Source: Candidatus Spyradenecus sp. (GTDB lineage Bacteria; Verrucomicrobiota; Kiritimatiellia; RFP12; DVOR01). From it: a stretch of 64,000 nucleotides of DNA. The DNA lies in NCBI GenBank assembly GCA_045613865.1, contig JAZLBT010000013.1, forward strand, positions 26,846 through 90,845. Reading direction: 5' to 3'. Made by a program: the position numbers and the translations under genes. This document shows, piece by piece, positions 29,118 to 64,000 of this stretch (position 1 is the stretch's first letter; the number at the start of each line of letters is the position of its first letter). Below the pieces are notes generated by a model. The model had not been told where the DNA came from, made no database searches, and was given only the letters and a program-made list of their open reading frames with translations.

Positions 29118-30518
29118 CTACTTACTTGTTCCCAAGATTGTTGCAATTCGTTGAGGACTTGGCCGCCAATAAAGCTTCTTCGGCGTATGAATAACAGCAT
29201 TGCTCTCACGATGATAGAGCACGCCATCCTTAGAGTAAAACATTGGATTCGATTGATGACACGTAATATACATCAAATTCGGGAACTGCTCGAAAAATCC
29301 ATTTGGAATCACGGTAACATGTGCTGGCAAAACAATTGCTGTTACCCCTGGCACCTCTACCTCGGGTGTAATCAACGATGCCTCATCATCATAAACAACA
29401 ACCCCTTGATGATACGGAGAAAGAGTCTTAACAGTGGAATGATTTTGAATCGACTCCCACTGCCATTTTGCTTGATAATCCGCAACCACTTGCTTCGTTG
29501 ACGAAACGAGATAATACCCAACACCCGCCAACGCAACAAGTGCCGAAGCAAGTCCCATTGCCTTGACAGCCACTCCCATTCGACGGCGACGCGCCACTTT
29601 CTTCGCATAGGCAGGCAAGTTCAAAATCCACAAGATGATTTCGCGCATCGATTGCCAACGTTCCTCTGGATTCTTACGAATGCAACGTTCAATCAAAATA
29701 TCCCATCCTGGATTTAACCCCATGCTTGAAGGTCGCTTCCACATTCCAACAGGAAACGTTCCCGTCAACATACGACACATCATCACACCAAAAGCGTAAA
29801 TATCCACAGCAGGAGTGAGAACGGCCTTCGGATCCCACTGTTCGGGCGCCATATAATCCGGCGTTCCACGAACCGCATCATCGGTTAATGTCGAATCAAT
29901 TGCTGCAGCCGCACGTGCGATACCAAAGTCCGTCACAACGGCATGGCCATCGTCTCGAATCAACACATTTCCCGGCTTCAAGTCACAGTGAACAATTGCC
30001 CCGTCAACAAAGGTGTGTGCATAGAAAAGTGCACGTGCAACGTCAGAAGCTAGCGTTTGCACAATACGTTCATCTATGCGCCCCTGCTTCGCAAGCACAT
30101 CTTCAAGCGTGAGCGAAATACGCGAAGAGGTTTCTTCCACATTCGTCGTTACACGCGAGAACCAATTCCGTCCCGACAAAACATCTTTATAGCGATCACG
30201 CGGCAAACCCACGTAGTCCATGATAAAGTAAAGACGACCTGTTTCCGGCATTACACCCATTGTGTGTAGCGTCACAATGTTATTATGGCGCAAACGAACG
30301 GTTGTACGGGCTTCTTCAATAAAGTTTTCAATCGCTTCACTTGTATCTGCGCGTTGAATGTCCTCGCGCAAAACCTTCATTGCGAAAAATTCACGCAACA
30401 ATGGATTCACGACTTCATAAACATCACCCATGCCACCTGACGCAAAGTGCTTCACAACGCGATAGTCACCGACAAGCGTCTGAGAGGGAATAATTGAGCT
30501 ATTCTTCGTCTTATTCAT
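29118..30518 (-). CDS. Membrane-anchored Ser/Thr protein kinase.
   Basis: Hanks motifs GGMGDVYEV, HCDLKPGNVLI, DFG and APE. Transmembrane segment near residue ~330. Short extracytoplasmic C-terminus. Confidence 0.85.
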   Translation of the reverse strand: MNKTKNSSIIPSQTLVGDYRVVKHFASGGMGDVYEVVNPLLREFFAMKVLREDIQRADTSEAIENFIEEARTTVRLRHNNIVTLHTMGVMPETGRLYFIMDYVGLPRDRYKDVLSGRNWFSRVTTNVEETSSRISLTLEDVLAKQGRIDERIVQTLASDVARALFYAHTFVDGAIVHCDLKPGNVLIRDDGHAVVTDFGIARAAAAIDSTLTDDAVRGTPDYMAPEQWDPKAVLTPAVDIYAFGVMMCRMLTGTFPVGMWKRPSSMGLNPGWDILIERCIRKNPEERWQSMREIILWILNLPAYAKKVARRRRMGVAVKAMGLASALVALAGVGYYLVSSTKQVVADYQAKWQWESIQNHSTVKTLSPYHQGVVVYDDEASLITPEVEVPGVTAIVLPAHVTVIPNGFFEQFPNLMYITCHQSNPMFYSKDGVLYHRESNAVIHTPKKLYWRPSPQRIATILGTSK

Positions 30519-30537: not shown

Positions 30538-32583
30538 TTACAGCTTTCTACGAATACACTTTGTCGCGTTATCATATTCAAGCTGATATTTCTTGAGCCA
30601 TTCGGTCAAACGACTTGTCGCATAAGGGATTATTATCGCTTCAAGACGATTACGCTTAATCATTCCCTCAATGATTGTCGTTAAAAGAAACTTCTTATTT
30701 GTCTCTGAGAGCAATGAGGCCTCTTCAAAAACAAGACGCTTCATCTTTGTACACTTATCAAGGCAACCATCCAAAAATTCAACATTCATATTCATGATTT
30801 TTGTAGGCATCACAATCTCTTGCTCATCACTCTCATACTCGAAGAGATAGGCCGCCTTTTCTAAAATGCAAACCTTGGCGCCATCAACCTCTTCATAGGC
30901 CGCATTCCAATCGCGATCCCAGAAGCTTGGCAACTTCTTACCAAAGGCCGTACGCGGAATCAACCCACCCTCTGCGTTATACCAAACATCTGCAAGTTCA
31001 GTATCTCTAAACGCATTCCGTTCGTAGGTAATCGCAGTCGTATTCACATAGAGATTTTCAACCTTCATCCCCTTGAATGCTGTTGGTTTAACATTCAACG
31101 TATAACCTGCGATGTGCTGAATATAAATATCCGCATCCTTAGACGTACACTTCAAAAGGTGTAAACACTTTTCATCCGATGCATCAAGCTGCACGTCAAA
31201 AGACGACATCGGTTCATCAAGTTCAATCTGATGGGCAAGCAAGAATGAAGAAAGCGACTGAATAGGATTTGCAGGACGAACCTTCGGCACACTTTCCTTC
31301 TTTGATTTATCAATCAAAAGTGCTTGCATCACCTCAACAACCGCCTCACCAACATTCTCATCCGTTGCATTTGACAACGATGTGGTCGCAACAACTGATG
31401 TTGAGGTCTTCGCTTGCCGTCCAAAATAGGGGACATAACGGCCTTCTTCCGGCGAAGCAAGAGGTTTAAAGAGTGAAAGCGCCCACACGGCATAAAGAAG
31501 AATCGTCAACAAAAATGCACCCGCGCAAATAATACACTTTCGCACCAATGCACGCCAAGGCGTACGATAGCACGATTTCATTCGCATCAATGCGGTATGC
31601 AAATCACCCAATGTCCGATAACGATGCGTAGGATCTGAATCTAAACAGCAATGAAGAATCTTTTCCCACTTCTCATTCAACGGTGGCGTTGATGGCAAAA
31701 GAAATTCACCTGAGAAGATTTCACCCGTGAGCAATTGATACATCGTCACACCCAAGGCATAAAGATCCGTCTGCGGTGAAGGCGGCTCGCCCATACGCAA
31801 CTCAGGCGCCATGTAGTTAATCGTTCCCAACACAAGGTGATAGGCTTGACCATTCGTCTGCATACGCAAAGATAACGAACGATCCTGACCATTCATCATA
31901 CGCTTACGAAGCGAAGCATCGGCAACCTTTGCCACACCAAAATCTGCCACCATCGCATGCCCGTCAGGACGAATCAAAATGTTTGCAGGCTTAATATCAC
32001 GATGAATCACCCCGCTCCCATAATGGTGAGCATAATTCAAAGCCGCAGCAACGTCTGCCACAATTCGACGGACAAGCACTGGATGGATAAGACGATTTAT
32101 ACGATGACCATACGTCACCATGTCTTCAAGCGAAAGCGAAACACACCCACCACTAATCGTGGGCTCGGGAGTCTCGTCCCAACACTCCAAAGGATGTTCG
32201 CCAAATGCAGCATGGAGTAAAGCATTCTTGCGCTTACTCGACATTGCCACATAATCCATCACAAAGTAAAGCGTCTTTGTTGCGGCATCCTGCTCAAGGG
32301 TTTGCACCGAGACAATATTCTCATGACGCAACTGCGCAGTGATACGCGCTTCTTGCAAAAAGCGATCCGCACAATCCTGCCGTTCAATCTCCGTATCCCC
32401 CTGAACAAATAACGTCTTCAATGCAAAACGTTGATGAAGCATCGAATGCTCCACCTCATAAACCGCACCCATGCCACCAACACCAATTTTTCGCAATACG
32501 CGATAAGAGCCAAGCATCATCCCTGCGGTGAGCTCAACATGTTCGTGTAACTGATTAACATTGACGGTCGGTTCGTAACTCAA
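30538..32583 (-). CDS. Membrane-anchored Ser/Thr protein kinase with ~300-aa extracytoplasmic C-terminal domain.
   Basis: GVGGMGAVYEV, HRDIKPANILI, DFG and APE. Transmembrane helix AGAFLLTILLYAVWALSLF. Large C-terminal domain of unknown fold. Confidence 0.85.
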   Translation of the reverse strand: MSYEPTVNVNQLHEHVELTAGMMLGSYRVLRKIGVGGMGAVYEVEHSMLHQRFALKTLFVQGDTEIERQDCADRFLQEARITAQLRHENIVSVQTLEQDAATKTLYFVMDYVAMSSKRKNALLHAAFGEHPLECWDETPEPTISGGCVSLSLEDMVTYGHRINRLIHPVLVRRIVADVAAALNYAHHYGSGVIHRDIKPANILIRPDGHAMVADFGVAKVADASLRKRMMNGQDRSLSLRMQTNGQAYHLVLGTINYMAPELRMGEPPSPQTDLYALGVTMYQLLTGEIFSGEFLLPSTPPLNEKWEKILHCCLDSDPTHRYRTLGDLHTALMRMKSCYRTPWRALVRKCIICAGAFLLTILLYAVWALSLFKPLASPEEGRYVPYFGRQAKTSTSVVATTSLSNATDENVGEAVVEVMQALLIDKSKKESVPKVRPANPIQSLSSFLLAHQIELDEPMSSFDVQLDASDEKCLHLLKCTSKDADIYIQHIAGYTLNVKPTAFKGMKVENLYVNTTAITYERNAFRDTELADVWYNAEGGLIPRTAFGKKLPSFWDRDWNAAYEEVDGAKVCILEKAAYLFEYESDEQEIVMPTKIMNMNVEFLDGCLDKCTKMKRLVFEEASLLSETNKKFLLTTIIEGMIKRNRLEAIIIPYATSRLTEWLKKYQLEYDNATKCIRRKL

Positions 32584-46538: not shown

Positions 46539-47531
46539 CTACTTCCTTGCACACGCAAGCATATGCGGCATTGGTGGTGGCACCGGCCCAATCATAAACT
46601 CCTTAAACCCTGCCTCCGCACACCATTGTGAAAGCTCAACATCCGAAAACACCCAACCATGTTCCGTTGTTAATGCCATATTCACAGCGAACAACGCAGA
46701 GAAGGTTGGTGTTGTATGATCCGCGCCTGTCATCATATCAAGAATATAAACACACCCGCCTACGCGTATCGCACGATAAGCCCGCTTAAGAATATCAACA
46801 ATCATCGCTGGTGACTCTTGATGCAAACAACCAAAAAGTGTTACTACATCATACATCTCTTCTGGCCATTGATCAACATGATAATCCCCTGCATGACATG
46901 TAATTTGACGAGCATGTGAAGCCGTCATTTCCGTTGCAATCGCAGATATTGCAGGCAAGTCATAAGTATCACACGTTAGCGTTTCATCCGCCTTTGCCAT
47001 CAATAGCGCATAAGCTCCAGGTCCACCTGCGAGGTCAAGCACTCGCGCGCCCTTCGGCAACTTTAAATGTGGCACTATTGCCTGCCCAATTGCCATTGCT
47101 CGACCATACATTGACAATGCGAAACGACGTGTTCGTTCTGCATCTTCACCCAAATGAATCTCTGGCTTTTCTACAGGTTTACCTGTCTGTACAAATTGTG
47201 TTAATTTTCCCCATGCTTGATATACATCTCGATTATACGCGATAGCACAAGTAAGGTCATGTGACGCCTGTTTAACTAACGTCAAGGCTGTTGCTGGTGT
47301 CAAAGCATAACGGCCATCGCTCTTCGTTAACAGACCAATGGAAACCGCAGCATCAAGCAATAACGTTATCCCACGTTGCGAACAGTGGCAATGAACCGCG
47401 AGTTTCTCTGCTGTTGGATCATCACACTCTTTGATCATCGTAAAAAGATCTAAATCAAGCGCAGAAAAAAGAACTGATGACCCGTAGAAGGCGCTCGCTA
47501 AATCAATAATTTGAGGAACCTGCAATTCCAT
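46539..47531 (-). CDS. Class I SAM-dependent O-methyltransferase (COMT/PF00891-like with N-terminal dimerisation domain).
   Basis: SAM motif VLDLAGGPGAYA plus the downstream acidic and catalytic His region. Start overlaps the upstream gene's stop by 1 nt. Confidence 0.7.
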   Translation of the reverse strand: MELQVPQIIDLASAFYGSSVLFSALDLDLFTMIKECDDPTAEKLAVHCHCSQRGITLLLDAAVSIGLLTKSDGRYALTPATALTLVKQASHDLTCAIAYNRDVYQAWGKLTQFVQTGKPVEKPEIHLGEDAERTRRFALSMYGRAMAIGQAIVPHLKLPKGARVLDLAGGPGAYALLMAKADETLTCDTYDLPAISAIATEMTASHARQITCHAGDYHVDQWPEEMYDVVTLFGCLHQESPAMIVDILKRAYRAIRVGGCVYILDMMTGADHTTPTFSALFAVNMALTTEHGWVFSDVELSQWCAEAGFKEFMIGPVPPPMPHMLACARK

Positions 47532-50500
47532 TAATACAACTTCTTTCCATAAATCATCATCTTACGCAAATGTAAGAAGGTTTTATTCGCACCCGTGCAA
47601 CGTACACGAACATATTGACCTTTCACAGGAGGGAATGTATACGTATAATCACGTTTGGCAGTAGCTTCCTCTACTACCGTTTGCCACTTCTTCCCATCCT
47701 CAGAAACTTCAACCACAAAAGGCACCAATCGCGCTATATTTCCCGTTGTATTCTTAAGGAAGACTCGCGAGACCTCAGAAGGTCCTGCCAATTCTACTTC
47801 TGCCCAAGGACCGACCTCTTCCCGTGTATGGAATGCATCCGTTTCAACCTTATCATCAATCACATGACGATAAGCAGATGGATGATCCCATTGAGACGTT
47901 GAAGAGATGCGAAGCAATCCATTCGCGGAACACAAATACCCCCACTGTTTTGCCTCTTCTTCATTAAACAATACAGCACGATCCACCGGTTTCAAACGAT
48001 CTTGCAAATCACAAAGAGACTGAAATGCCGCTATATTTTGCGCATTACTAGCGCCAATAATCGCATCCCTAACGTACTTGCCAAGCACATCTCCCGCACC
48101 ATCCTCCTTATCAAGTATTTCATTTAGTGCAGCGATATAACGCGAAGCATAATCTTTATCTTCAAGAAAGCGTCCGCTCCCCCAACGAATCACGCGTCCA
48201 AATGCATCTCTTGTTCCAAACTGTGCAGTTAATACTGCGTTAAATAAATCAAATACTTGAGACTTCCCAGAAAGACGTTTCTCATGATCATTAAGGATTC
48301 GCTCATAATCACAAAATTCCGCAGTTTCATGTTCTCCCTGCTTCATTAGTCGATGTAAATCTATAAGAATCTTTGCAACTTCTTCCTTCTTTAAAAGTTG
48401 CTCAATCGTTGGCAAAATTTCACGATGAATTAAATCCCATACTGGTTCAAGGTGATGTCCCATGCCCCTTGCGGTCAGCTTAGCAAAGCGCACCCACTCT
48501 GCACGCGCATCCTTAAACGTGCCACACTTCTTAAGATAGTTCGCATATGCTCGCCAAGTGTGGAGGTTTACGGGACAAAGTTTACCGCTCAAACGATAAA
48601 GTCCAAGAACCTTCTTATTCACCTTCTCAACAGGCTCAACCGAAACTTCAAGTCCTGCCCCATAATTAAAATTGAAATACCGCAATTCAAAACGATGTAC
48701 ACCCTTCTTCAATTTTAGCGTCTTTGACGTTCCACGCATCGCATGAACCCCATCCTCGCCTGCAACAGGTTTACCATCTATCCAAAGTCTTGCGCCATCA
48801 TCCGAGCGAACGTCCACCATTACCTCACCCGTCTGAGGCATCGTCAAAGTCCCCTTCCAAACATAACACACATAATCCTTTTGGACACGATTAATTGCAA
48901 AATTCTCAACAGCCTCCCACCTTCCAAGCACTTCAAGCAAGGCGAGGCTTTTCGGCAATTCCTTTCCTTGCCATGCATAAGCTACACACTTCATTGGAGA
49001 GAGTTTTGGCGTAGCCGTCAATTGACCGCGTAGAATCTCTGCCGTCCAAAGAGCTCGCATGGAATCACGATACTTAGAATGAGCAAACAACTCATTTTGT
49101 AAGTCCAACATAGAAAACGAATAAACGTTCTTCCACGGCAAGAAATGTGCACCTGTATACGGATTTACATTATAGTCAATTTCCCAACGTAACATCCGAG
49201 GTTGCCATAAGTTATACGCACAATGCGCAGGCTGTCCTCCTGTTGTTGCTGGTAATCCGTGTGCACGTGCAGCCATACAACCATAATGACTCAATGACCC
49301 ACACACACCTCCTATCTTGCGGGCCGTCTCATGACGTACATAAACATGATCCCATGGTCGATAATAAATCGGACCATGAATTGAATCACCAAAGAAATTA
49401 TGTACACGATATGCCGCAAACCAACACACCCCTGCATAATCACTTGGCGAAACATGATGTTGCTTTACAATCCATGCCATTGATGCCGCATCACCCTGAC
49501 TTGTTGCAAAAACAAAGCGCATTTGATCTACGCGTAAATCATCCATTCCCTTTATTAGCAACAACTCCTTACGCGTCTGCAATAATACTTGTAACGCATA
49601 GAAAACATCCGATGGATCTTCCTGTGCATTTAATGCAGCAGCAGTTGCCCATCGTAAATCAGCATCCGTCGGCATTGTTTCCTTAAATGAATGATAATAA
49701 ATCGCATCCAAAGCAAGTAATGCATTATCCCATGTTGTTGAAGGATCACCCGAGGCAAAAAAATCCTCCATCCATACTTGATTGTCAAAAAAAGCCTTTA
49801 AAAAAGATGCTCCACCTTCACGTGCAAGAATTTTTTCAAACGTGCTTTCTTTTAAAACGGTCCATGCATATCGCTTCACAATGGGGTCGCGGGGTTTTAT
49901 TTGATATGGTTTTAAATCCACCTTCTCTTCAAGAACCTCTCTCAAAGGCATCACCCGACGAATTGTAATTGCGCCCTCATTCTCCGTAGGATTCTCAACA
50001 TCGAGTATAAAATTCAACATTGGCCCTTCAAGAGTTGTCTCGAAAATAATATCCTTTCCCTCATGAAGGACAAGATCAACTGGCTTCTCAAACGAGGTTT
50101 CAAGAGAAAGACAGTTGCCCGTCAAAGAGACAAGCGACATTTTCCCCGAGCCCTTCGTTCGCTTAATATTGATTGCGTAACGCCCAGGACCTGATATATA
50201 ACGCTTTATCCCCGTTGACACCGTCCATTTATTCGTCCCAGTAGACACATGCTTTGCACGCCAACCATATGGAACAGCCACAGGCCCCTCACCCCACATA
50301 CATAGATAACCTAAAGCACCAGCTCCAAAATGCGTCTCCGTACCCATTGCCACGACCTGTTTCAGTACTTCTACACATGCCTCACGCTTTGCTGGCACAT
50401 CCTTATAAAGCACAAATGGCAACAATGCAATTGCTTGACGTTGATTTAATGTCAATTGTTCTTGCGGTTTTGCCTTAATCTCAGCAATTCGCGCCTCCCC

Positions 50501-51109
50501 CTCCTCAAACTTCTTTTCCGTTGCGAATTTTTGAATTTCATAACATACTCCATCCGTAGGGAAAAACGTAAGAGCAAAATGCCACCCACTCTTATCCTCA
50601 GGATCGAGCGCCTGTATTTTCTTTAAAATATCTCCTGTGAAAACAGGTGCTTTTGCACGCCACTCTCCCACATTCTCCTGCAACACACGATACATCTGCC
50701 CAAGAGAATCGACTGTATTTGTTGCGAGATAAGAATCAAAAAGCTTCTCTCGCATTCGCCCCTCTGCAATTGCAATCTTCAAATCTTCCTTCGTTGTTGT
50801 AGCAGACAATCCCTCAACAAGATAAACACAACGCCCAGCAGAATTAAAATACCCCACCGCTGGCAATCGTTCCACCGAAATCCGAAATTTATCTAACGTC
50901 GCATCTTTCTTCGTTCCCTTAGGTTGCACATCTGGCATATCCACAATTACTGTTGAAACACCTACTGTCTTTTGGAAATCTGCATCTTGCCACAAAGTTT
51001 GTACGTGAGGCGAAATTTGACACCAATCACTCCCCGTATAAAGCACTGCATGTTGCGCAAAAAGTGGAAGAGTGAAACAGCTCACCAAAAGTAAGAAAAA
51101 AATCTTCAT
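47531..51109 (-). CDS. Large secreted multidomain protein: transglutaminase-like cysteine-protease core + PA14 domain + C-terminal F5/8 discoidin domain.
   Basis: Signal peptide MKIFFLLLVSCFTLPLFA (start taken at 51109). Transglutaminase-like Cys/His core (GGVCGSLSHYG…RAHGLPATTGG…AHCAY). PA14 (VDVRSDDGARLWIDGKPV…RFELRYFNFNYGAGLEV). Discoidin-like C-terminus. Confidence 0.6.
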   Translation of the reverse strand: MKIFFLLLVSCFTLPLFAQHAVLYTGSDWCQISPHVQTLWQDADFQKTVGVSTVIVDMPDVQPKGTKKDATLDKFRISVERLPAVGYFNSAGRCVYLVEGLSATTTKEDLKIAIAEGRMREKLFDSYLATNTVDSLGQMYRVLQENVGEWRAKAPVFTGDILKKIQALDPEDKSGWHFALTFFPTDGVCYEIQKFATEKKFEEGEARIAEIKAKPQEQLTLNQRQAIALLPFVLYKDVPAKREACVEVLKQVVAMGTETHFGAGALGYLCMWGEGPVAVPYGWRAKHVSTGTNKWTVSTGIKRYISGPGRYAINIKRTKGSGKMSLVSLTGNCLSLETSFEKPVDLVLHEGKDIIFETTLEGPMLNFILDVENPTENEGAITIRRVMPLREVLEEKVDLKPYQIKPRDPIVKRYAWTVLKESTFEKILAREGGASFLKAFFDNQVWMEDFFASGDPSTTWDNALLALDAIYYHSFKETMPTDADLRWATAAALNAQEDPSDVFYALQVLLQTRKELLLIKGMDDLRVDQMRFVFATSQGDAASMAWIVKQHHVSPSDYAGVCWFAAYRVHNFFGDSIHGPIYYRPWDHVYVRHETARKIGGVCGSLSHYGCMAARAHGLPATTGGQPAHCAYNLWQPRMLRWEIDYNVNPYTGAHFLPWKNVYSFSMLDLQNELFAHSKYRDSMRALWTAEILRGQLTATPKLSPMKCVAYAWQGKELPKSLALLEVLGRWEAVENFAINRVQKDYVCYVWKGTLTMPQTGEVMVDVRSDDGARLWIDGKPVAGEDGVHAMRGTSKTLKLKKGVHRFELRYFNFNYGAGLEVSVEPVEKVNKKVLGLYRLSGKLCPVNLHTWRAYANYLKKCGTFKDARAEWVRFAKLTARGMGHHLEPVWDLIHREILPTIEQLLKKEEVAKILIDLHRLMKQGEHETAEFCDYERILNDHEKRLSGKSQVFDLFNAVLTAQFGTRDAFGRVIRWGSGRFLEDKDYASRYIAALNEILDKEDGAGDVLGKYVRDAIIGASNAQNIAAFQSLCDLQDRLKPVDRAVLFNEEEAKQWGYLCSANGLLRISSTSQWDHPSAYRHVIDDKVETDAFHTREEVGPWAEVELAGPSEVSRVFLKNTTGNIARLVPFVVEVSEDGKKWQTVVEEATAKRDYTYTFPPVKGQYVRVRCTGANKTFLHLRKMMIYGKKLY

Positions 51110-51113
51110 CCCA

Positions 51114-51959
51114 TTACTCCACATTAATACGGACTTGAACCTCATAATTACGAGACTTCAAATACGTGGTTGAGATACCGCTAATTGAGCGCACCTGGCG
51201 ACACGCAGCTAAAACTTCGTTATCATGTGTTGCGTTTCCCGATGATGACGCGAGGGAAATCGATGCAATCATACCAGGTGACCCACCCTTACGAAAAAGA
51301 ACCTTCACAACAGGCGCACGCCCCCCTACTGGCTCAATTCCAGCCTCTTGGCAACGACGTTTAAACTCTGCCTGAATAAGTCCTGCGACACGCGATGCTT
51401 CATTTGGTGGAATTTGATTCTTATTCCCAACCTTTGCACCTGCACCTAAGAGTTTTTGGACCTCTTCATCCGACAACTTTTTCTGCGTTGCAACCTTTGT
51501 TACATCCTTTTTACCTGTTGTGATTGGTCCCACACGCTTCCCAATTTGAATTTTGGGCTTCGGTTTATCTTTAGGCTTATTTACCGGTTTCGGCTTTTCC
51601 TTTGGAGGTTCAACCTTTTTCTCTTTTGGTTTCTCTTGAGGCGGCTTTGGAGGTTCAATTCGCACCTCTTCCACAGGATCAGGTAATGGAGGTGGCGGAG
51701 GAACAACCTCCTCAATTTTTGGCTCCGGTTTTGGCTCTGGTTCCGGTTCTGGTTCTGGCTCTACAATATCATTTGGCTCCTCCGCCAAGACATCTGCAGC
51801 ATTTTCCTCCATAACCACAAGAAACTCCATTGGAACAATCTTCTCCTCTGACGTTGAAGAACATCCATTTCCCGTTCCAATAAACAACCAAGCAAAAAGG
51901 AGGAAATTAATCCCCACAGACAAACCATAATATAGCTTATTATCTTTACTTTCCATCAT
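51114..51959 (-). CDS. tonB: TonB family energy-transducer protein.
   Basis: N-terminal TM anchor, (EP)n/(KP)n proline-rich spacer, and a C-terminal TonB domain pattern (…VVKVLFRKGGSPGMIASISLASSSGNATHDNEVLAACRQV…). Confidence 0.75.
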   Translation of the reverse strand: MMESKDNKLYYGLSVGINFLLFAWLFIGTGNGCSSTSEEKIVPMEFLVVMEENAADVLAEEPNDIVEPEPEPEPEPKPEPKIEEVVPPPPPLPDPVEEVRIEPPKPPQEKPKEKKVEPPKEKPKPVNKPKDKPKPKIQIGKRVGPITTGKKDVTKVATQKKLSDEEVQKLLGAGAKVGNKNQIPPNEASRVAGLIQAEFKRRCQEAGIEPVGGRAPVVKVLFRKGGSPGMIASISLASSSGNATHDNEVLAACRQVRSISGISTTYLKSRNYEVQVRINVE

Positions 51960-56783: not shown

Positions 56784-58706
56784 TTAAAGATCGCCAAGAC
56801 CTTCAATCTCAACACCGCCTTCGTCCTGCACCTGGACCTTGACTTCTTCTTCAATCTTCGTCAAAGCACCCTTTGCAAGAGGCGAGTAGCGATAGTATGC
56901 CATCAACTGCAATGCGGTGAAGCAACCACCGAGCACACGGTTATCACCGTCGCCATCTTGGTTAATCCACGAGCTGTGCGAGGCCATGTCGACGTTGAGC
57001 AACTTCTCGACAGGGATGCCATTACGCTTACCATCCTTGGTTGCCTTATCCTTCATGAGACGATCCTTGTCGGACATCTTCTTGCCGCCAAAGGTGGTTG
57101 CACCTTCAGCAAGGCCCCAATAGGTAATATACTGCGGTTTACCGTTGTGATCTTTATAACCCGACTCTTCTGCAGGGATGTTAATCGCTGCAGCGGTGTA
57201 GAGACGCTGTTGCTTCACGTGCCAATCATTCCAAGCCTTAGACTTTTCACCCTGATTATAGCGCACCTGCGAGAGGTAATAGCAATAATACTGAGGCGAG
57301 TTACCCGCTTGCTTCTTTGCGCCAGAACCAGCGCCCGTCGGCATATGATCCTTTTCGAATGCAGGCTCCCACCCGTTCATATAAGTAAGCGCCTTTTTGC
57401 AGTCGGGGTGATCTGCCTGGTCAAGCATCTGAAGGATAAGTGCACAAGCCGCCGTCAAACCGGGATACTGATTCTTACGCGTATTCACATAACCGAAAGA
57501 GCCATCCTGATTCATCACTTGACGAATACCCTTTGTGGACTTCTTCAATGCTTCAACCACGCGATCCCTACCATCCGGTCCAGGCACATGAATCTTTGCA
57601 AGCTTTGCAGCCTTCAACGCCTGAACAGCCCAACTTGTGAAGGAGGAGTCTTCCTGGTCCTTGCCGGGATATTTCGGGAAGAAGTTGTAGTACCAACCAC
57701 CATTCGGCGTCTGACCATCCAAGATTGGAGGAAGTGCGAGAAGCACCGCCTGCTTCACTTCAGGAATATTGGTCATTGCATACGCTTCAGCGAGTGCATA
57801 CACGGCCACCATCTGGTCATAGTTCGTCTTACAGCGATGACGGAAGTAACCCACTTGGTCGTCACGCATGTCATGATAACCTTCAGGCTTGTTGCCACCC
57901 TTTTGCTTCTGACACTGACTCTTGTCGGTGATTTGATCCTTTAAGAGACCTTCGATTGCACGACGAACAACGTCATCGAATTCACCTGTTTCACTCATAC
58001 CCGGAACTTCACCGTGTGCGAGGAAGCAGAGAAGTGCAATTGCAGAAGTACCTGTGCTCTTATCCCAAAGACCCGTATTCTTGTCTTGACGCAACGCCAA
58101 GAAGCGCAAGAAGCCAACAACATACTGTTCCGAGCGAACACCTTTGAGGCTACCGAGCTTTTCACCACGCACACCAGGATTACGTGAGGTTGGCACGTTA
58201 ATCTTCACGAGCGAAGGAGTTTCAAGCACAGAGTCAAATGGTGCAGGTTGAGGCGACTGTTCGACAGAGGTCGTTGGCGGTGCTTCAATATCAATTTCCA
58301 CATCAACTTCAACAGGCTCTTCGAGCTCAGGCATCTCTTCCGGTGGTTCCGGCGGTTCTTCCTCGAGCTCTTCTGGCGGAACTTCTTCAATCACCTTGGT
58401 TTCAAACTTTGCCACCTTTTCTGGCGGTTGAAATTTGACCACAAGCATTGCGAGAATTGCGAGACCCACAATTGCAATAGCTGCGATAGGAGCACCCAAA
58501 CGTTGCAATTCAATCATTGCCTTTTTACGTTCGAGCGAATCCTTCGGTGCCTTAAAGCCCTTAATCATATCAATGATACGACGAAGATACGAGCGTTCCG
58601 TTTCTTCAAAGAGCTTCAGCAATTCGTCTTTATTATCGATATCTGCCATAACAACACCTCTTACATTGTCATGATGGCCAAGTTTGTCATGCCATATTTG
58701 CTGCAA
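56784..58706 (-). CDS. TonB-like N-terminal module (TM anchor + Glu/Pro-rich spacer) fused to a prenyltransferase/terpene-cyclase-like (alpha/alpha-toroid QW-repeat) domain. Last gene of the exbBD operon.
   Basis: Transmembrane helix IAAIAIVGLAILAMLVV, then the EEVPPEELEEEPPEPPEEMPELEEP spacer. C-terminal ~450 aa carry repeated QxxDG(S/G)(F/W) motifs (QTPNGGWYY, NQDGSFGY). The probable start is internal, near 58649. Confidence 0.5.
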   Translation of the reverse strand: MQQIWHDKLGHHDNVRGVVMADIDNKDELLKLFEETERSYLRRIIDMIKGFKAPKDSLERKKAMIELQRLGAPIAAIAIVGLAILAMLVVKFQPPEKVAKFETKVIEEVPPEELEEEPPEPPEEMPELEEPVEVDVEIDIEAPPTTSVEQSPQPAPFDSVLETPSLVKINVPTSRNPGVRGEKLGSLKGVRSEQYVVGFLRFLALRQDKNTGLWDKSTGTSAIALLCFLAHGEVPGMSETGEFDDVVRRAIEGLLKDQITDKSQCQKQKGGNKPEGYHDMRDDQVGYFRHRCKTNYDQMVAVYALAEAYAMTNIPEVKQAVLLALPPILDGQTPNGGWYYNFFPKYPGKDQEDSSFTSWAVQALKAAKLAKIHVPGPDGRDRVVEALKKSTKGIRQVMNQDGSFGYVNTRKNQYPGLTAACALILQMLDQADHPDCKKALTYMNGWEPAFEKDHMPTGAGSGAKKQAGNSPQYYCYYLSQVRYNQGEKSKAWNDWHVKQQRLYTAAAINIPAEESGYKDHNGKPQYITYWGLAEGATTFGGKKMSDKDRLMKDKATKDGKRNGIPVEKLLNVDMASHSSWINQDGDGDNRVLGGCFTALQLMAYYRYSPLAKGALTKIEEEVKVQVQDEGGVEIEGLGDL

Positions 58707-59092
58707 CTGTTAAGCACTTGAATTAACGTTTCATGCTTTGAGTCACGCGAACACTTGATGACAACATTGGATTTTTTGTTGTTACGAGCAACACGTTCAA
58801 ACGCAGCATCAAATTGAGCAAGCGAAGCGAAGGGGCGCTTATTTAACATAATACCGCAGCCCGGTTGCGTCTTCTTGTTGTAAACAACAATATCGATGCT
58901 TTCAATTTGTTCTGTCGAGGAAGAGGAGCTATTACCCGAGGGTGCAAGTGCATCAAGGTAAGCGAGTACGTCTTCCTGTTTGAGCGTCACGACGAAGAAG
59001 ATGATGAGCTGGAACACAACGTCAATCATTGGCGTCATGTCGAGTGCGACATCTTCAGAAGGTTTACGTCTACTTTTTTTAGCCATCGTCAA
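58661..59092 (-). CDS. exbD: Biopolymer transport protein ExbD/TolR (copy 2).
   Basis: DMTPMIDVVFQLIIFFVV N-terminal transmembrane motif. About 140 aa. Confidence 0.8.
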   Translation of the reverse strand: MTMAKKSRRKPSEDVALDMTPMIDVVFQLIIFFVVTLKQEDVLAYLDALAPSGNSSSSSTEQIESIDIVVYNKKTQPGCGIMLNKRPFASLAQFDAAFERVARNNKKSNVVIKCSRDSKHETLIQVLNSCSKYGMTNLAIMTM

Positions 59093-59098
59093 CCTCCC

Positions 59099-59587
59099 TT
59101 ACTTCTTATTTTTGCTACGCGACTCAGCCGATTCCTTCATACCAAAGAAGGAAAACTTCCAAAGTCGTTGCATTTGGCAGATATCCATCAAGCGACGCAC
59201 ATCCTTGTGGTCGGTATTTTTATCTGCACGGATCATAACAGGGACATTATTGCCGCGGCGCTTAACGATTTGCTGAAGGATCGCCGCCAATTGGCTATCG
59301 CTAACGACAGCACCATTGACAGAAATACAGCATCCCTTACCAGTGAAGAACTCGGTTGCCTTGCTATAGGTCATGACTTCGAGGACGACAGGCGCATTAT
59401 CCTTATACTCATCCTGCTTGAATTCGGGACCATCCTTAGCATCGGCGAGCACGATATCAGGGTTGACTGATTCAGCCGTCTTAAGCGTCACGACGAAGAA
59501 GATAATGAGCTGGAACACAACGTCAATCATTGGCGTCATATCCAAATTCGCACTATCATTTTGTCGTTTAGATTTTTTCTTTGCCAT
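59099..59587 (-). CDS. exbD: Biopolymer transport protein ExbD/TolR (copy 1).
   Basis: Same N-terminal motif. The first ~55 nt of the ExbD core are almost identical to copy 2. Confidence 0.8.
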   Translation of the reverse strand: MAKKKSKRQNDSANLDMTPMIDVVFQLIIFFVVTLKTAESVNPDIVLADAKDGPEFKQDEYKDNAPVVLEVMTYSKATEFFTGKGCCISVNGAVVSDSQLAAILQQIVKRRGNNVPVMIRADKNTDHKDVRRLMDICQMQRLWKFSFFGMKESAESRSKNKK

Positions 59588-59674
59588 AGGAGAATCTCCA
59601 GATGAAATGGTTTACCGTAGAAACTACGAGTACAACGAGATGCACCGCATTTAGCGATGCCTCTTCATCACGGA

Positions 59675-60478
59675 TTATTCTTCGACAATTTCGATGCCAC
59701 GGAGGTTCTTCACCAAATCACCGGTGACCACCTGCATGCGCAAAACAAGGCGATTTGCACTGTTACGCAAAGCATAGAAGAAGGTCACAGCAGGAATTGC
59801 GACAACGAGACCACCTGCCGTCGTATAGAGTGCCTGCGAAATGGTCAATGCGAGGGAGCTAATTTCAACACCGGTCTGTGCGATCGAGGCGAAGGTCATG
59901 ATCATGCCCTGCACCGTACCCAAGAGGCCCAACATCGGTGCGAGAGAGCCGCACACAGAAATCCAGTTCAAACGCTGCATCATCTGTTCGATTTCGAGGT
60001 CACCAGCGGCACCGATTGCTTCGTCAATCACATCAAAGCCTTCTTCAACGTGAGAGAAGCCTGCCTTCAAGATCTTTGCCATGGAGGAAGGATCATTATC
60101 GCAGATTTCGAGCGCCTTCATCACATCGCCCTGATCCATTGCTTCCTTCACCTGGTCGATCAAGTTCTGAGGCATAATCTTTGCGGGGCGAACGAGAATG
60201 TAGCCGTCAACAATGAAGTAGGCAGCAAAGATACCCGAACCAAAGAGTGCGAACCAAAGGATAATACCGACCATACCCGAACCGAAGACAACGTCAAGGA
60301 AGCTTGTTCCTCCAGCTGCGGGATCTTCTGCAGGTGTCTGCATTGCACTTTCTGCAGCGGGTGCTTCATCTTGAGCATAGACTTGAGGAGCAACAACGGT
60401 GGCACCAAAGAACAATGTCACGATTGCTAAGAATTTCATCATCTTTTTCATGTTTGATTTCCTTGTTTGTTTAACCAA
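59675..60478 (-). CDS. exbB: MotA/TolQ/ExbB proton-channel protein with N-terminal signal peptide/periplasmic extension.
   Basis: Three transmembrane helices with the ExbB signature region (…GLLGTVQGMIMTFASIA…). Cleavable signal-peptide-like N-terminus. Confidence 0.8.
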   Translation of the reverse strand: MVKQTRKSNMKKMMKFLAIVTLFFGATVVAPQVYAQDEAPAAESAMQTPAEDPAAGGTSFLDVVFGSGMVGIILWFALFGSGIFAAYFIVDGYILVRPAKIMPQNLIDQVKEAMDQGDVMKALEICDNDPSSMAKILKAGFSHVEEGFDVIDEAIGAAGDLEIEQMMQRLNWISVCGSLAPMLGLLGTVQGMIMTFASIAQTGVEISSLALTISQALYTTAGGLVVAIPAVTFFYALRNSANRLVLRMQVVTGDLVKNLRGIEIVEE

Positions 60479-60516
60479 TTTAAAAAACGTTTAAGACATT
60501 CACATATAGGCTCAGA

Positions 60517-61317
60517 TTACTTCATCTTTGCCCACCGCGTTTTCGCGCAGTCTCTCTGAAGCAACGCACGCAATTCATTTGCGCGAGCACCATGCCCCAT
60601 ACCCGTGAAAGCCTTTGCGCCCTTGTAAAGGGCCTCTGCATAAGCATCATAGGAGGGGTCATTATAGAGAAGAATGACACGAAGATAACCGACAAGGAGG
60701 GCTTCCTTGTAATTTGCAGTATTTGCACCCTTTGCAAGTGAAGCATTACCACGTGCAACGTAGGCATCAGCAATCACTTCGGGGTTACCCGTTGCGATGG
60801 CTTGTTCTAACTGCTTTTCCAAATCCTTAATCTTGTTCTCAGCAATGAGCGCTTCCCAATAACGCTTTGCGAGGGGACCTTCATACTGCACCTCGGGTTT
60901 CAAACGCGCCTTTTCACGCACGAGTGTGAGGACATCTGCAGTTTTACCCTTCTTGATATAGATTTCTGCGAGCCATGCAGCGGCTTCAATATCATGGGTT
61001 AAATTGTTATACGTCTCAACAATTTCCTTAAGTACGGCCTCAGCGGTGAGATCACCAGCAAGCACTTGCTTAATGGCGGGATCTAATTCCTTCGGACGTT
61101 CGATTTCAAGCTTTTCAACATTGTCAGCTTCGCAGTTCGTAGACGAGCGACCACTCACGATATCGAAACGCTTTGAAGCATTACGCCAAGTGATTTCACC
61201 CTTCATTTCACCGCCATCGAGCGTATAGATAACGCCCTTAGGCTTGGAGATTGCCGCCATCATTGGCATAGCCATACAGGCGGCGAGAGCTAAAAGTGTA
61301 GTACGTGTCATTTTCAT
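60517..61317 (-). CDS. Secreted TPR-like repeat protein.
   Basis: Signal peptide MKMTRTTLLALAACMAMPMMAA. A/L/Y-rich helical repeats. Confidence 0.45.
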   Translation of the reverse strand: MKMTRTTLLALAACMAMPMMAAISKPKGVIYTLDGGEMKGEITWRNASKRFDIVSGRSSTNCEADNVEKLEIERPKELDPAIKQVLAGDLTAEAVLKEIVETYNNLTHDIEAAAWLAEIYIKKGKTADVLTLVREKARLKPEVQYEGPLAKRYWEALIAENKIKDLEKQLEQAIATGNPEVIADAYVARGNASLAKGANTANYKEALLVGYLRVILLYNDPSYDAYAEALYKGAKAFTGMGHGARANELRALLQRDCAKTRWAKMK

Positions 61318-61343
61318 TTTTATTCTCCTCGTCTAAAGGCGCC

Positions 61344-63977
61344 TTAGTTTGCGGTTGCCATAATTGCACGTACGCGCTGAGTGTAGGTGCCTTCGGGGAA
61401 GGTGTCGAGATAAGTCTGACCAATCGTCTTGATATCGGTTGCGAAGCTTGAGCGAGCGGTTGCATCCTTTTCATTATCCATACGATACTTTGCCAATTCC
61501 AAGTAGCCGAGATAAGCCTTTTGGATATAAGGCGAAACGCGAGGATCCTGTTCATTACCAACGAAACCTTCAACCATCATCGCACCGTCAAAGGCGTTCA
61601 TTGCAGAACCAGCAGAATCAAGACGTGTTTCCGAGCCTTCAGGTTCAGCCTCGAAGGTCTTCTGCGCCAATTGAGCCAAGGCGAGCTGAGTCTTTGCCGT
61701 CAATTCAGGATCAGCGATTTGCTTCGAGCCATCCGCATTCAAGGCAACCTTACCTGCAGCATCGCGAGCAACGTTGTTATTCTTAATGAAGGTTTCAGAC
61801 TTCTTTGCATTCGCGATAATCGCGTTACGTTCATCCAACGTTGTTGCATGACGCATTTCTGCAGCGGTGAGATCAATGATTAAGCAGTGTGCACCGAGTG
61901 CAAGCTTGGACTTGCCAAAGGTTGCAAGCATTTCATCTGCGCGCTTACGAGCAGCCGCGACGCTTGCCTTGTCCCCCTTCATCAAGAGCGCCTTGATGGC
62001 GAGTTCTGTACCTTCAAACTTCAATGTCTGAGAAAGATTCTTTGTTGCAAGAAGAGCTTGACATGCTTCAAGCGTCATGTCGGCATCCTTTGCTTCGAAG
62101 AGCTTCTTTGCTGCGTTCAAATACTGACTTGCAGTATATTGACCACCCGACTTGAACATTTCGCGATACTGACGCACCGATTCAGACTTCATACCCATCT
62201 GAGCGAGTGCATCTGCGAGCATCGGGATAGCATTCTGAGCTTCCGCGGAATTGGGGAACTTACGGCGCAAGGTATCCAATGTCTTCTGTGCATTTGCAAC
62301 GCCCTCTTCACCCTGAGTCGTCTGCAAGGTACCCATCTGGAGCAACACTGCAGGGGCGAACTTGCCATTGGGATATTCCTTGAGATAAGCTTCATAGAGA
62401 GCCAAGGTCTTTGCAGTAATCTTATCTGCAGCGGCCTTACCCTTTGCCGTTGCCGTCGAGGGCATCGTGCGTTGTGCGCAGAAGGCCGTCAAATACGTTG
62501 CGGCATCAGCCAAATCACGTCCCTTCTGACGTTCATCAGCGGCCGTAATATACTTACTTTCAGGCGCCTTCAAATCTGCAGCAAGCGCCTTAAAGACAGC
62601 TTCTGCAGCGGCATATGTCTTGCAAATTGTAGCATTCTTAGAACCATCGGTATCATCACGGCGGAGTTCTGTTGCCAATGCAACGAGTGCATTTGCCGTT
62701 TCGTGTTGCGCAACAGCGGCGTAATAACCAGGACGTGCAACGCCCTTGAAGTGATCAACAAGAGCCTTTGCTGCAGCCGTACGTTTCTTCGTATCTGCAC
62801 AAGGGCCCTTCTTGTAAGCTTCGAGAATCGAGAAGCGAGCAGACATACACAAATCGCGCTGCGATTCATCTGCCTTAATTTGTTCAATAATTGCTTCGAG
62901 ATCAGCAATTGCCTTTTCGATATCTTCCTTTGCCGTAGCCGTTTCAACAATGCTCTGAGCGCGCTTCAACTTACGTGCCAATGCGCCAGAGTGGTTGCCA
63001 TAATAACGGAAGAAGGCATTTTCCGATTCCTTCTGAAGATTCGTCAACTTCTTTTCTGCAAGGAAGTCTGCCAATTCACCCAATGCATTACCTGCTTGAG
63101 GTGCGAGCTTTTCATCCTTTGCAAAGGCTTCTGCGAAAGCATTGATGCGCTTGACAGCATCTTTATAACGATCTGCTGGAGCCATTTCCTTATTCGCGCT
63201 ATCAATATAGATGCTTGCCTTGATCATCTTCATCAAGGGGCCCATCATATCAAGTGTATAAGCGCCTTTTTCTGCATCGAGAATTGCCTGATAAGCGACC
63301 AATGCTTCATCAAACTTGTTCGAGTCAAAGAGCATATCCGCATTGATGAACTTCTGACGACGCACCTTTGCACGCGTTTCATCATTTGCTTTAACCGAAA
63401 TCTTCGTCGCGAACTGCTTATCAAGAATTTCCGTCACGCTATCAACAATCTTAATTGCGCCCTCAGCACTTTCCGATTCAGGATAGTTCATGAACACGTT
63501 CACGCAGTGGTGTAATGCACCCTGGTTGTTACGCTTCTTCGTCTTCGGATCGCGTTCACCTAAGAGATAGTCCAACACGAGTTTGCCGTTAGGATCATTC
63601 TTCGTCACCTTGCCACCAGCCTTAGCGATTTGTTCTTCAGCAAGGCGATAGAGCAAGCTACCGAGCAAGTAGCGGCACTTCGGCAACGGCGAAATACGCA
63701 ACAATGCGGGATCCTGTTCACGCAACTGTTCGTGAATCTTATTGAGCATTTCCAAGTAGTCGTCAATCAACAACTGAGCGCCCTTGACGTCGTTCTTCAA
63801 AATGCAAATGTGTGCTTTACCATTGATTGCATCACCGAAGTAAAGATCTTGCGACCAAAGCATTTCTTTGATCAACTTTTCGGCTTCAACAATGTTTGCA
63901 TCACGCTTCGCCTTATCGGTTGTGCGTTCGGCTTGTGCAAGCAAGGCGTTCAAATAATTTGCACGCATTGCCTTCAT
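61344..63977 (-). CDS. Large TPR-repeat protein. The N-terminus may lie beyond the window edge.
   Basis: Multiple Ala/Leu/Tyr-rich 34-residue-like repeats throughout. The track start at 63977 is the first Met, 23 nt from the window end. Confidence 0.5.
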   Translation of the reverse strand: MKAMRANYLNALLAQAERTTDKAKRDANIVEAEKLIKEMLWSQDLYFGDAINGKAHICILKNDVKGAQLLIDDYLEMLNKIHEQLREQDPALLRISPLPKCRYLLGSLLYRLAEEQIAKAGGKVTKNDPNGKLVLDYLLGERDPKTKKRNNQGALHHCVNVFMNYPESESAEGAIKIVDSVTEILDKQFATKISVKANDETRAKVRRQKFINADMLFDSNKFDEALVAYQAILDAEKGAYTLDMMGPLMKMIKASIYIDSANKEMAPADRYKDAVKRINAFAEAFAKDEKLAPQAGNALGELADFLAEKKLTNLQKESENAFFRYYGNHSGALARKLKRAQSIVETATAKEDIEKAIADLEAIIEQIKADESQRDLCMSARFSILEAYKKGPCADTKKRTAAAKALVDHFKGVARPGYYAAVAQHETANALVALATELRRDDTDGSKNATICKTYAAAEAVFKALAADLKAPESKYITAADERQKGRDLADAATYLTAFCAQRTMPSTATAKGKAAADKITAKTLALYEAYLKEYPNGKFAPAVLLQMGTLQTTQGEEGVANAQKTLDTLRRKFPNSAEAQNAIPMLADALAQMGMKSESVRQYREMFKSGGQYTASQYLNAAKKLFEAKDADMTLEACQALLATKNLSQTLKFEGTELAIKALLMKGDKASVAAARKRADEMLATFGKSKLALGAHCLIIDLTAAEMRHATTLDERNAIIANAKKSETFIKNNNVARDAAGKVALNADGSKQIADPELTAKTQLALAQLAQKTFEAEPEGSETRLDSAGSAMNAFDGAMMVEGFVGNEQDPRVSPYIQKAYLGYLELAKYRMDNEKDATARSSFATDIKTIGQTYLDTFPEGTYTQRVRAIMATAN

Positions 63978-64000
63978 TGCCTGTTCATTCGCGGCATTAG

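Follow-up and report, generated by a model that had tools for sequence, protein, structure and literature searches.

In the 64,000-nucleotide (nt) stretch of the Candidatus Spyradenecus sp. genome analysed here (assembly GCA_045613865.1, contig JAZLBT010000013.1, positions 26,846 to 90,845 of the forward strand; hereafter the window), a six-gene operon encodes two tetratricopeptide repeat (TPR) proteins, an ExbB/TolQ-type subunit, two ExbD/TolR paralogs and a 621-amino-acid (aa) protein in which a transmembrane (TM) anchor and a disordered tether carry an alpha/alpha-toroid head. The family of this last protein is real, conserved and uncharacterised, and its anchor, tether and short acidic tail recur in sister proteins that bear a PA14 lectin fold in place of the toroid. 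We tentatively favour a reading in which the six genes form a Ton/Tol-type envelope machine with a dedicated transducer and a non-catalytic ligand-binding head, most likely serving the capture or translocation of glycans. A literature search for ExbBD together with the squalene oxidase repeat, or together with Kiritimatiellota, returned nothing on the anchor-protein family.

Organization of the six-gene operon

Six open reading frames (ORFs) follow one another in the same direction on the minus strand, with gaps of 6-87 nt between them, and are listed here in the order of transcription (positions in the window):

61344..64000, minus strand: large periplasmic TPR protein, of which about 880 of about 1030-1050 aa are inside the window
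60517..61317, minus strand: 266-aa secreted protein, beta-rich in its N-terminal domain and with TPRs after it, remotely related to Mul1B and resembling YbgF and BamD
59675..60478, minus strand: ExbB/TolQ-type proton-channel subunit (PF01618, 6.6e-28)
59099..59587, minus strand: ExbD/TolR paralog 1, ExbD1 (PF02472, 4.3e-19)
58661..59092, minus strand: ExbD/TolR paralog 2, ExbD2 (PF02472, 2.4e-20)
56784..58649, minus strand: 621-aa anchor-toroid protein, the last gene, from the ATG at 58649 to 56784

An earlier reading of the window, made from its sequence only, had proposed the order TPR-TPR-exbB-exbD-exbD followed by an anchored protein, and all six ORFs were found in that order on the minus strand, in the places that it gave. 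Two of its gene starts had to be revised. It began the last gene at a TTG at 58706, giving 640 aa; this codon is merely the first possible start of the open frame, and the true start is the ATG at 58649, which together with an AAGAGG ribosome-binding site sits directly past the ExbD2 stop and yields a 621-aa product identical to a database protein (P0001). It also started the first TPR gene at 63977, where the frame has no in-frame upstream stop and stays open to the window end; the homologs of this protein are longer. A promoter and terminator scan gave no signals above shuffled expectation.

Architecture of the anchor-toroid protein

The 621-aa protein was examined in an alignment of 45 full-length family members and in an AlphaFold2 model with a mean predicted local distance difference test score (pLDDT) of 75.7. 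It falls into four parts:

58434..58649, minus strand: anchor module, residues 1-72, with two short, presumably cytoplasmic helices, an invariant motif and the TM helix
58152..58433, minus strand: Glu/Pro-rich tether, residues 73-166, disordered, with pLDDT <50 over residues 74-166
56889..58151, minus strand: toroid head, residues 167-587, a single (alpha/alpha)6 toroid with QW-like motifs
56784..56888, minus strand: acidic C-terminal tail, residues 588-621 and the stop codon, disordered, with pLDDT <50

A single TM anchor followed by a Glu/Pro-rich spacer, as claimed in the sequence-only reading, was thus confirmed at residues 52-72 and 73-166. The anchor is the most constrained part of the protein, with 10 invariant residues out of 76, among them G31, K42, A44, E47, Q49, R50, A53 and P54. 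Residues 1-51 comprise the two short helices and the motif K42-x-A44-x-I-E47-x-Q49-R50-L-x-A53-P54; the modelled helices span residues 7-17, 21-32 and 39-72, so that the TM helix, LGAPIAAIAIVGLAILAMLVV, which is the sole hydrophobic helix of the protein, continues the third. Because positive charges precede the TM helix and the C-terminal part is large, the protein is predicted to be oriented N-in/C-out. The tether (about 93-95 aa) contains 23% Glu and 19% Pro and is of the acidic Glu-Pro type alone, the Lys-Pro half being absent, and it ends in a motif that is kept across the family, QSPQP...D-x-V...SPV-x-M...R-x-P-G-x-R-G. The tail ends in VEIEGLGDL, with the family consensus D-[VI]-x-[VI]-x-[VI/G]-[DG]-[IL]-COOH, is conserved both in the toroid class and in the PA14 class described below, and resembles a TonB box in its alternating pattern.

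That the anchor and the toroid are an artefact of gene calling, either as two separate genes or through a chance similarity to toroids, is an explanation to which we give practically no weight. It could appeal to the low complexity of the tether and to the window protein itself, which by its own sequence matched nothing in Pfam or NCBIfam. Anchor, spacer and toroid are, however, encoded in one uninterrupted ORF with its ribosome-binding site at the ATG at 58649, as the sequence-only reading had supposed, and more than 100 homologs align over 99-100% of its length; the high-confidence toroid model, the profile matches and the Foldseek matches concur. The two-gene version is refuted by the full-length homologs, the family alignment, the AlphaFold2 model and Foldseek together.

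Exchange of the head on a conserved anchor

The anchor was followed beyond the toroid proteins with a profile built from the N-terminal 76 residues alone, with which 1.84 billion representative proteins were searched exhaustively by HMMER. This profile scored 65-118 bits on every family member at the loci described below, including the stand-alone paralogs, and 49 bits on one fragment (L076). The search returned 251 clusters in total, a figure that overstates the number of distinct full-length proteins because many matches are fragmentary: about 90 of the 150 listed are short (many of 60-300 aa) or end in unrelated sequence (for example, P0126 and P0135), and most likely represent contig-end fragments or gene calls from metagenome assemblies that are frameshifted or chimeric. 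The named matches that we checked are labelled Kiritimatiellota.

Within these matches, 18 clusters of 420-490 aa form a second class without the toroid, in which the anchor recurs together with the SPV-x-M tether motif and a tail of the form D-[VI]-x-[VI]-x-[VI]-D-[IL]. Its central domain gave weak Pfam matches to PA14/GLEYA, and when an AlphaFold2 model of the class (pLDDT 72) was searched with Foldseek, the top 27 matches were all PA14 sugar-binding or adhesin lectins, the best at 4.5e-7. One member (P0162) ends an operon of the order TPR (1143 aa) - 238 aa - ExbB - ExbD - ExbD - PA14-class gene (L085), another (P0144) has an ExbD gene immediately upstream, and two genes of the class are stand-alone.

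Because the PA14 class keeps everything except the head, the conserved unit is the anchor, tether and tail, with the head as a cassette. Nothing else in the data speaks as strongly for the anchor, instead of the toroid, as the part associated with ExbBD, and for the head as a binding module and not an enzyme; an exchangeable head on a conserved anchor is what would be expected if the anchor is coupled to the motor and the head is its payload. The sequence-only reading had envisaged a motor-coupled anchor of TonB type that delivers a different domain, and this idea survives in part: the full-length architecture, the exbBD linkage and the exchangeable head speak for it, whereas homology to TonB and a cyclase or prenyltransferase identity of the delivered domain are not supported.

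Near one of the stand-alone PA14-class genes lies a gene for a 388-aa protein with faint Prenyltrans and SQHop_cyclase_C matches (L086:10050-11216), immediately preceded by a gene for an extracytoplasmic function (ECF) sigma factor (L086:9388-9933); toroid proteins without the anchor thus also exist in these genomes.

Fold and motifs of the toroid head

The head, of about 420 aa, was modelled in blocks mostly of pLDDT 85-97, and a Foldseek search of the PDB matched it exclusively to (alpha/alpha)6 barrels, among them 2-epimerases of glucose and cellobiose, small squalene-hopene cyclases, YihS, and glycoside hydrolases of families GH76 and GH88, with E values of about 2e-5 to 1e-3, target TM-scores of about 0.55 and identities of about 13%. 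The claim that an alpha/alpha-toroid stands where a TonB C-terminal domain would be was therefore upheld by structure prediction and Foldseek. In the family, PF13243 (SQHop_cyclase_C) was matched, weakly, by 33 of the 45 members (best E 1.4e-9), and the family profile matched squalene-hopene cyclase structures at 2e-8, through the repeated Q-x-x-D-G-x-W segments only. The toroid assignment therefore derives from the agreement of homologs, family profile and model, not from a Pfam match of the window protein itself. Other Pfam matches among the 45 were Pec_lyase (9/45), GH88 (4/45) and PF00432 (1/45, weak, 3.9e-4); a thioester (TED) domain was also considered and rejected, being matched by one of the 45 members at 0.005.

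The repeated QxxDG(G/S)(W/F) motifs on which the sequence-only reading had relied are correct as to two of them, Q188..W195 and Q313..W319, which the whole family shares; the third is incomplete, and the fourth, NQDGDGD, falls in an insertion of lineage-specific occurrence (the gut clade) that is rich in beta structure and covers about residues 488-560. The many invariant residues of the head include H212, E214, E288, D334, W340, K346, K349, a QYYCYY block, W473, W476 and R587, and these aromatic and polar positions suggest that a binding site or an interface is conserved.

These residues could equally be read as an active site, and we considered whether the protein might be a membrane-anchored periplasmic enzyme, either a terpenoid cyclase or prenyltransferase or else an epimerase, unsaturated glucuronyl hydrolase or lyase, that is merely co-transcribed with ExbBD and receives no force from it. 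The polar set (H212, E214, E288, D334, K346, K349 and R587, with QYYCYY), the PF13243, Pec_lyase and GH88 matches and the enzymes at the top of the Foldseek results are all compatible with such an enzyme, as are the names that the family carries in databases, where its members are called 'hypothetical', 'prenyltransferase/squalene oxidase repeat-containing protein' or 'terpene cyclase/mutase family protein'. We nevertheless regard this explanation as very unlikely. DxDD occurs anywhere in only 4 of the 45 members and never at a conserved toroid column, no conserved DCTAE-type motif was seen either, and the head, about 420 aa long, has one barrel where class II cyclases have two; class II cyclase membership was rejected on these grounds, and the matches to cyclase models are confined to the QW-like repeats. 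A non-enzymatic PA14 lectin replaces the head on the same chassis and in the same operon position, and the conserved cytoplasmic anchor, tether motif and tail would be superfluous for a simple anchored enzyme. Thus the toroid fold holds and a cyclase identity does not, there being no conserved DxDD and only one barrel, and a prenyltransferase identity is not supported. The likeness to squalene-hopene cyclases and the prenyltransferase beta subunit (PF13243, PF13249, PF00432) lies in the alpha/alpha toroid and the Q-x(2-5)-G-x-W repeats, and the head resembles the (alpha/alpha)6 sugar epimerases, GH76 and GH88 as much as it does the cyclases; further differences from cyclases are the predicted periplasmic location and the tethering. 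Hundreds of Kiritimatiellota and Lentisphaerae proteins named 'terpene cyclase/mutase' or 'prenyltransferase repeat' are therefore probably mis-named.

Comparison with TonB

The 621-aa protein is like TonB in its one N-terminal TM anchor (presumed N-in), its long Pro/Glu-rich periplasmic spacer and the position of its gene directly after exbB-exbD, and also in that one motor appears to serve more than one paralog in a genome. It differs in a 50-aa cytoplasmic module with the motif IELQRL-x-AP that is missing in TonB, in the 420-aa toroid head and in the additional conserved C-terminal tail. Neither TonB_C (PF03544) nor TonB_2 (PF13103) was matched in it even at E up to 10, its TM helix has no S-x3-H (SHLS) motif and no His or Ser-His pattern at all, the invariant E47, Q49, R50, A53 and P54 lying instead at the cytoplasmic boundary, and the N-terminal profile gave insignificant matches only when compared with the PDB (PCNA at 0.001, without a passing stretch, and PsbH). 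The TonB homology that had been ascribed to the protein is accordingly withdrawn, and by membership it is neither a TonB nor a cyclase, because it has no TonB C-terminal domain, no SHLS motif and no conserved DxDD.

The exbB-exbD-exbD-tonB clusters of Bacteroidetes, which include TPR proteins, end in a genuine TonB. The present operon would share with them the two consecutive exbD genes after exbB, the anchored spacer protein next and the TPR proteins; it would differ in that the TPR genes come first and that the last gene has another anchor and another head. By profile, the operon proteins have closer relatives in TolQ/TolR, YbgF/CpoB and Akkermansia Mul1B.

ExbB and the two ExbD proteins

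Membership of the motor proteins in their broad families is unambiguous, with 97.5 bits for ExbB on PF01618 (cut-off 22.9) and 69.3 and 73.3 bits for the two ExbDs on PF02472 (cut-off 25.4). ExbB is 48-77% identical across loci and about 75% identical among gut lineages. ExbD1 and ExbD2 form separate orthologous groups in all loci, with about 30% cross-identity, and both have the conserved TM Asp, within MTPMIDVVFQLIIFF; because there are two orthologous groups that each have this residue, the data suggest that ExbD1 and ExbD2 form a heteromeric pair in the ExbB channel. ExbD2 is always encoded immediately upstream of the anchor-protein gene. Among the NCBIfam models the best match of ExbB was TolQ, at 82.8 bits (cut-off 221), ahead of the ExbB models at 45-51 bits, and that of ExbD2 was TolR, at 6.6e-9 and 36.5 bits (cut-off 127).

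At the N-terminus of ExbB, a signal-peptide-like segment (…FLAIVTLFFGATVVAPQVYAQDEAP…) and a stretch rich in Ala, Pro and Glu come ahead of the first TM helix. By these features it can be classed as a 'long ExbB' with a predicted periplasmic N-terminal extension (compare PMC9008036).

Conservation and linkage across genomes

When one genome per GTDB species was scanned, relatives of the 621-aa protein were found at 329 loci, and the best 80 were analysed by tblastn with the six window proteins. Nearly all of these 80 come from Kiritimatiellae/Kiritimatiellota, Lentisphaeraceae, Candidatus Spyradenecus and unclassified metagenome-assembled genomes from gut and rumen. As far as our searches show, the module appears to be restricted to Kiritimatiellota and Lentisphaerae. 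The 80 loci were distributed as follows:

56 loci: full order TPR - 266-aa protein - ExbB - ExbD1 - ExbD2 - anchor protein
10 loci: ExbD2 adjoining, the remainder cut by a contig edge
1 locus: one inserted gene (L080)
5 loci: stand-alone copies
8 loci: no upstream sequence

The anchor gene is therefore linked to exbB-exbD-exbD in 67 of the 72 informative loci (the 56 full, the 10 at contig edges and L080), and the large TPR gene lies upstream in 56 of the 80. Genomes with stand-alone copies also hold an operon copy (L027/L028, L029/L064 and L075/L067), an arrangement that parallels the several TonBs that share one motor. Tandem duplicates of the anchor-toroid gene occur at L009:9941-13699 (two), L031:8320-13834 (two) and L033:6805-11854 (three); these paralogs are 70-85% identical and are therefore recent duplications.

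No conserved neighbours were found beyond the six genes except, in one clade of about 30% identity, lolCE-like and lolD-like genes that directly follow the module on the same strand at 31 of 81 loci (for example, L030:11678-13577, L049:11641-12864 and L077:11689-12912). The lolCE-like permease scored 254-272 bits on TIGR02212 and the lolD-like ATPase 230 bits, which may indicate a connection with envelope biogenesis and the trafficking of outer-membrane lipoproteins.

One stand-alone paralog, L028:9938-11530 (OW818680.1), lies directly after a ribosomal-protein L6/S5/L15-secY cluster and just ahead of an ECF sigma factor and zf-HC2 anti-sigma pair.

TPR partners and the relation to Akkermansia MUL1

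Both TPR proteins are secreted, as judged by signal peptides in their orthologs (for the 266-aa protein, in every ortholog), in which there is no conserved lipobox; homologs of the large one are 1008-1123 aa long and have Sec signal peptides. On the YbgF model TIGR02795 the large TPR protein scored 5.4e-10 and 39.9 bits in the window and 82.4 bits in the ortholog at L027 (cut-off 90.1), and neither of these two copies matched a Mul1A-type family in NCBIfam. Sixty orthologs of the small TPR protein were compared with the NCBIfam models; 48 of them matched BamD/YfiO, 45 matched YbgF and 10 matched, at E <= 0.01, NF052542, the 'Mul1B family putative transporter subunit'. The Mul1B matches run through the N-terminal beta-rich domain, with a best value of 2.8e-6, and the 266-aa window protein scored 16.9 bits (E 0.0028) against a cut-off of 75 bits. 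By these profile scores the 266-aa family is a remote relative of Mul1B and not a member.

The MUL1 locus of Akkermansia muciniphila, according to Davey et al. (2023), reportedly consists of the TPR protein Mul1A, Mul1B and ExbB/ExbD genes. Our operon resembles it in its occurrence in gut bacteria of the Planctomycetes-Verrucomicrobia-Chlamydiae (PVC) group and in that the ExbB/ExbD-type genes have beside them the genes of a large TPR protein and of a smaller one that is secreted; it differs in that the Mul1B scores are far below the cut-off of 75 and that the large TPR protein has no Mul1A-type match. Thus, through one protein and the general layout, the operon may be regarded as a remote relative of MUL1, although by curated thresholds it is not a member. 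In Akkermansia, mul1A (amuc_0544) is a mucin transport gene (PMC12570417), and the MUL genes encode periplasmic protein complexes that are needed for the intracellular accumulation of mucin products (PMC12418764). Amuc_0546, a biopolymer (ExbD-type) transporter, is encoded beside MUL1 (PMC11480725), and MUL1 has been likened to Sus (PMC13174399).

Proposed mechanism and the Tol-Pal alternative

We propose a model whereby ExbB and a heteromeric ExbD1/ExbD2 pair would constitute a proton-driven stator in the inner membrane that turns proton flow into movement, and the 621-aa protein would be its dedicated force transducer, coupled to the stator through the cytoplasmic and TM anchor. The acidic Pro-rich tether would span the periplasm and present the head, which would bind a ligand, through an (alpha/alpha)6 toroid in the window protein and through a PA14 lectin in the sister proteins. 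The beta-strand-like acidic tail may dock to a partner, most plausibly a co-encoded TPR protein or an outer-membrane component. TPR clamps bind acidic C-terminal peptides, and E. coli CpoB/YbgF binds TolA via its TPR domain; we take both as precedents for such docking. Most likely, the machine would spend energy on capturing or translocating complex glycans, either in the periplasm or at the outer membrane, by analogy with Akkermansia MUL1. A glycan role is favoured because PA14 is a lectin fold, because the toroid fold is common in glycan-active proteins and because of the Mul1B link, and also because of the paralog expansion, the glycan-degrading hosts and the glycan-active genes in the window.

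Several points weigh against this model and account for our caution. Coupling to ExbBD and energisation by the proton motive force are deduced from gene linkage, and the N-in/C-out topology from charge and size. Kinship of the anchor to TonB or TolA was rejected, since neither the Pfam search nor the comparison of the N-terminal profile with the PDB gave detectable similarity. The (alpha/alpha)6 matches of the head are generic, so that the predicted fold does not reveal the ligand, and no outer-membrane component is encoded in the operon. Every Mul1B match among the 60 orthologs is below the curated cut-off, and the likeness to MUL1 is drawn from published descriptions and the Mul1B model. In addition, ExbB and ExbD2 match TolQ and TolR best, the TPR proteins resemble YbgF/CpoB and BamD, lolCE/lolD-like genes follow at 31 of 81 loci and one stand-alone paralog lies beside secY; the Tol-type matches and these neighbours point to envelope housekeeping rather than nutrition.

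This last group of observations is the basis of an alternative that we judge possible, if on the unlikely side, in which the operon would serve Tol-Pal-like envelope maintenance or cell division. ExbB, ExbD1 and ExbD2 would then correspond to TolQ and TolR, the 621-aa protein would be an analogue of TolA, the TPR proteins would be counterparts of CpoB/YbgF, and the ligand of the head would be peptidoglycan or else a glycolipid or protein of the outer membrane, so that the machine energises outer-membrane homeostasis and not nutrient import. The likeness to Tol-Pal includes the position of the 621-aa gene directly after tolR in a tolQ-tolR-like arrangement, the best scores of the ExbB and ExbD proteins, which are those on the TolQ and TolR models, the co-encoded YbgF/CpoB-type TPR proteins (with 82.4 bits for the large one at L027, and YbgF matches in 45 and BamD matches in 48 of the 60 small ones) and the known CpoB/YbgF-TolA contact through a TPR domain. 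The high conservation of ExbB among gut lineages, the lol-like neighbours on the same strand and the paralog directly behind the ribosomal-protein/secY cluster would also suit such a role. Against the alternative, neither tolB nor pal was found in the operon or among its conserved neighbours, TolR/ExbD is encoded by two different genes, every score on a Tol-family model falls far short of its equivalog cut-off, and the AlphaFold2 model of the 621-aa protein has no TolA helical domain II or domain III. The replacement of the head by PA14, the tandem duplications (L009, L031, L033) and the stand-alone paralogs resemble a diversification related to substrates, and the small TPR protein has a remote kinship to Mul1B, a component of mucin uptake.

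Within the transducer model that we prefer, a more far-reaching version can be formulated, which is a speculation that we consider distinctly unlikely. Anchor, tether and tail would be an unrecognised class of transducers for 5:2 ExbBD-type motors with interchangeable lectin-like heads; the TonB-box-like tail would plug into the Mul1B/YbgF-like TPR protein or an outer-membrane protein, and the motor would reel polysaccharide through the envelope. If this were true, it would amount to a TonB- and SusC-independent 'selfish' route of glycan uptake in PVC bacteria that is evolutionarily linked to MUL1.

To our knowledge, ExbB-ExbD/TolQ-TolR motors drive few transducers, chiefly TonB and TolA together with a few gliding-motility proteins, and a third, lineage-specific transducer family with exchangeable heads would widen the known tasks of these motors. 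In guts, rumen and sediments, Kiritimatiellota and Lentisphaerae abound as glycan degraders, and we know of no Sus-like systems that they use; the operon would give them a concrete candidate for polymer uptake or handling. Akkermansia MUL1 is the only genetically validated glycan-uptake locus in the PVC group that we are aware of, and the remote Mul1B link ties the operon to it.

Other genes in the window

The sequence-only reading had also described a 'canonical TonB' encoded at 51114-51959 (minus strand). This 281-aa protein has the TM helix and a TonB-like spacer rich in EPEPEPEPKPEPK and KPK, and to that extent the description stands; its TonB_2 match is sub-threshold (E 0.025, 15 bits, cut-off 22), and no match to its C-terminus was found in NCBIfam or the PDB. 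We would call it plausibly TonB/TolA-like rather than 'canonical'. The end of its gene overlaps by 32 nt the start of a gene whose 1204-aa secreted product has PA14 and F5/8 type C domains (47531-51145, minus strand), and the two probably form one transcription unit.

At 2141-5389 (minus strand) the window encodes a 1082-aa GH31 glycosidase with C-terminal F5/8 type C and NPCBM carbohydrate-binding domains, which fits a host-glycan-degrading lifestyle. Three genes for eukaryotic-type Ser/Thr kinases (20665-23097, 29118-30518 and 30538-32583, all on the minus strand; Pkinase 1e-35 to 1e-46) lie within 12 kb of one another.

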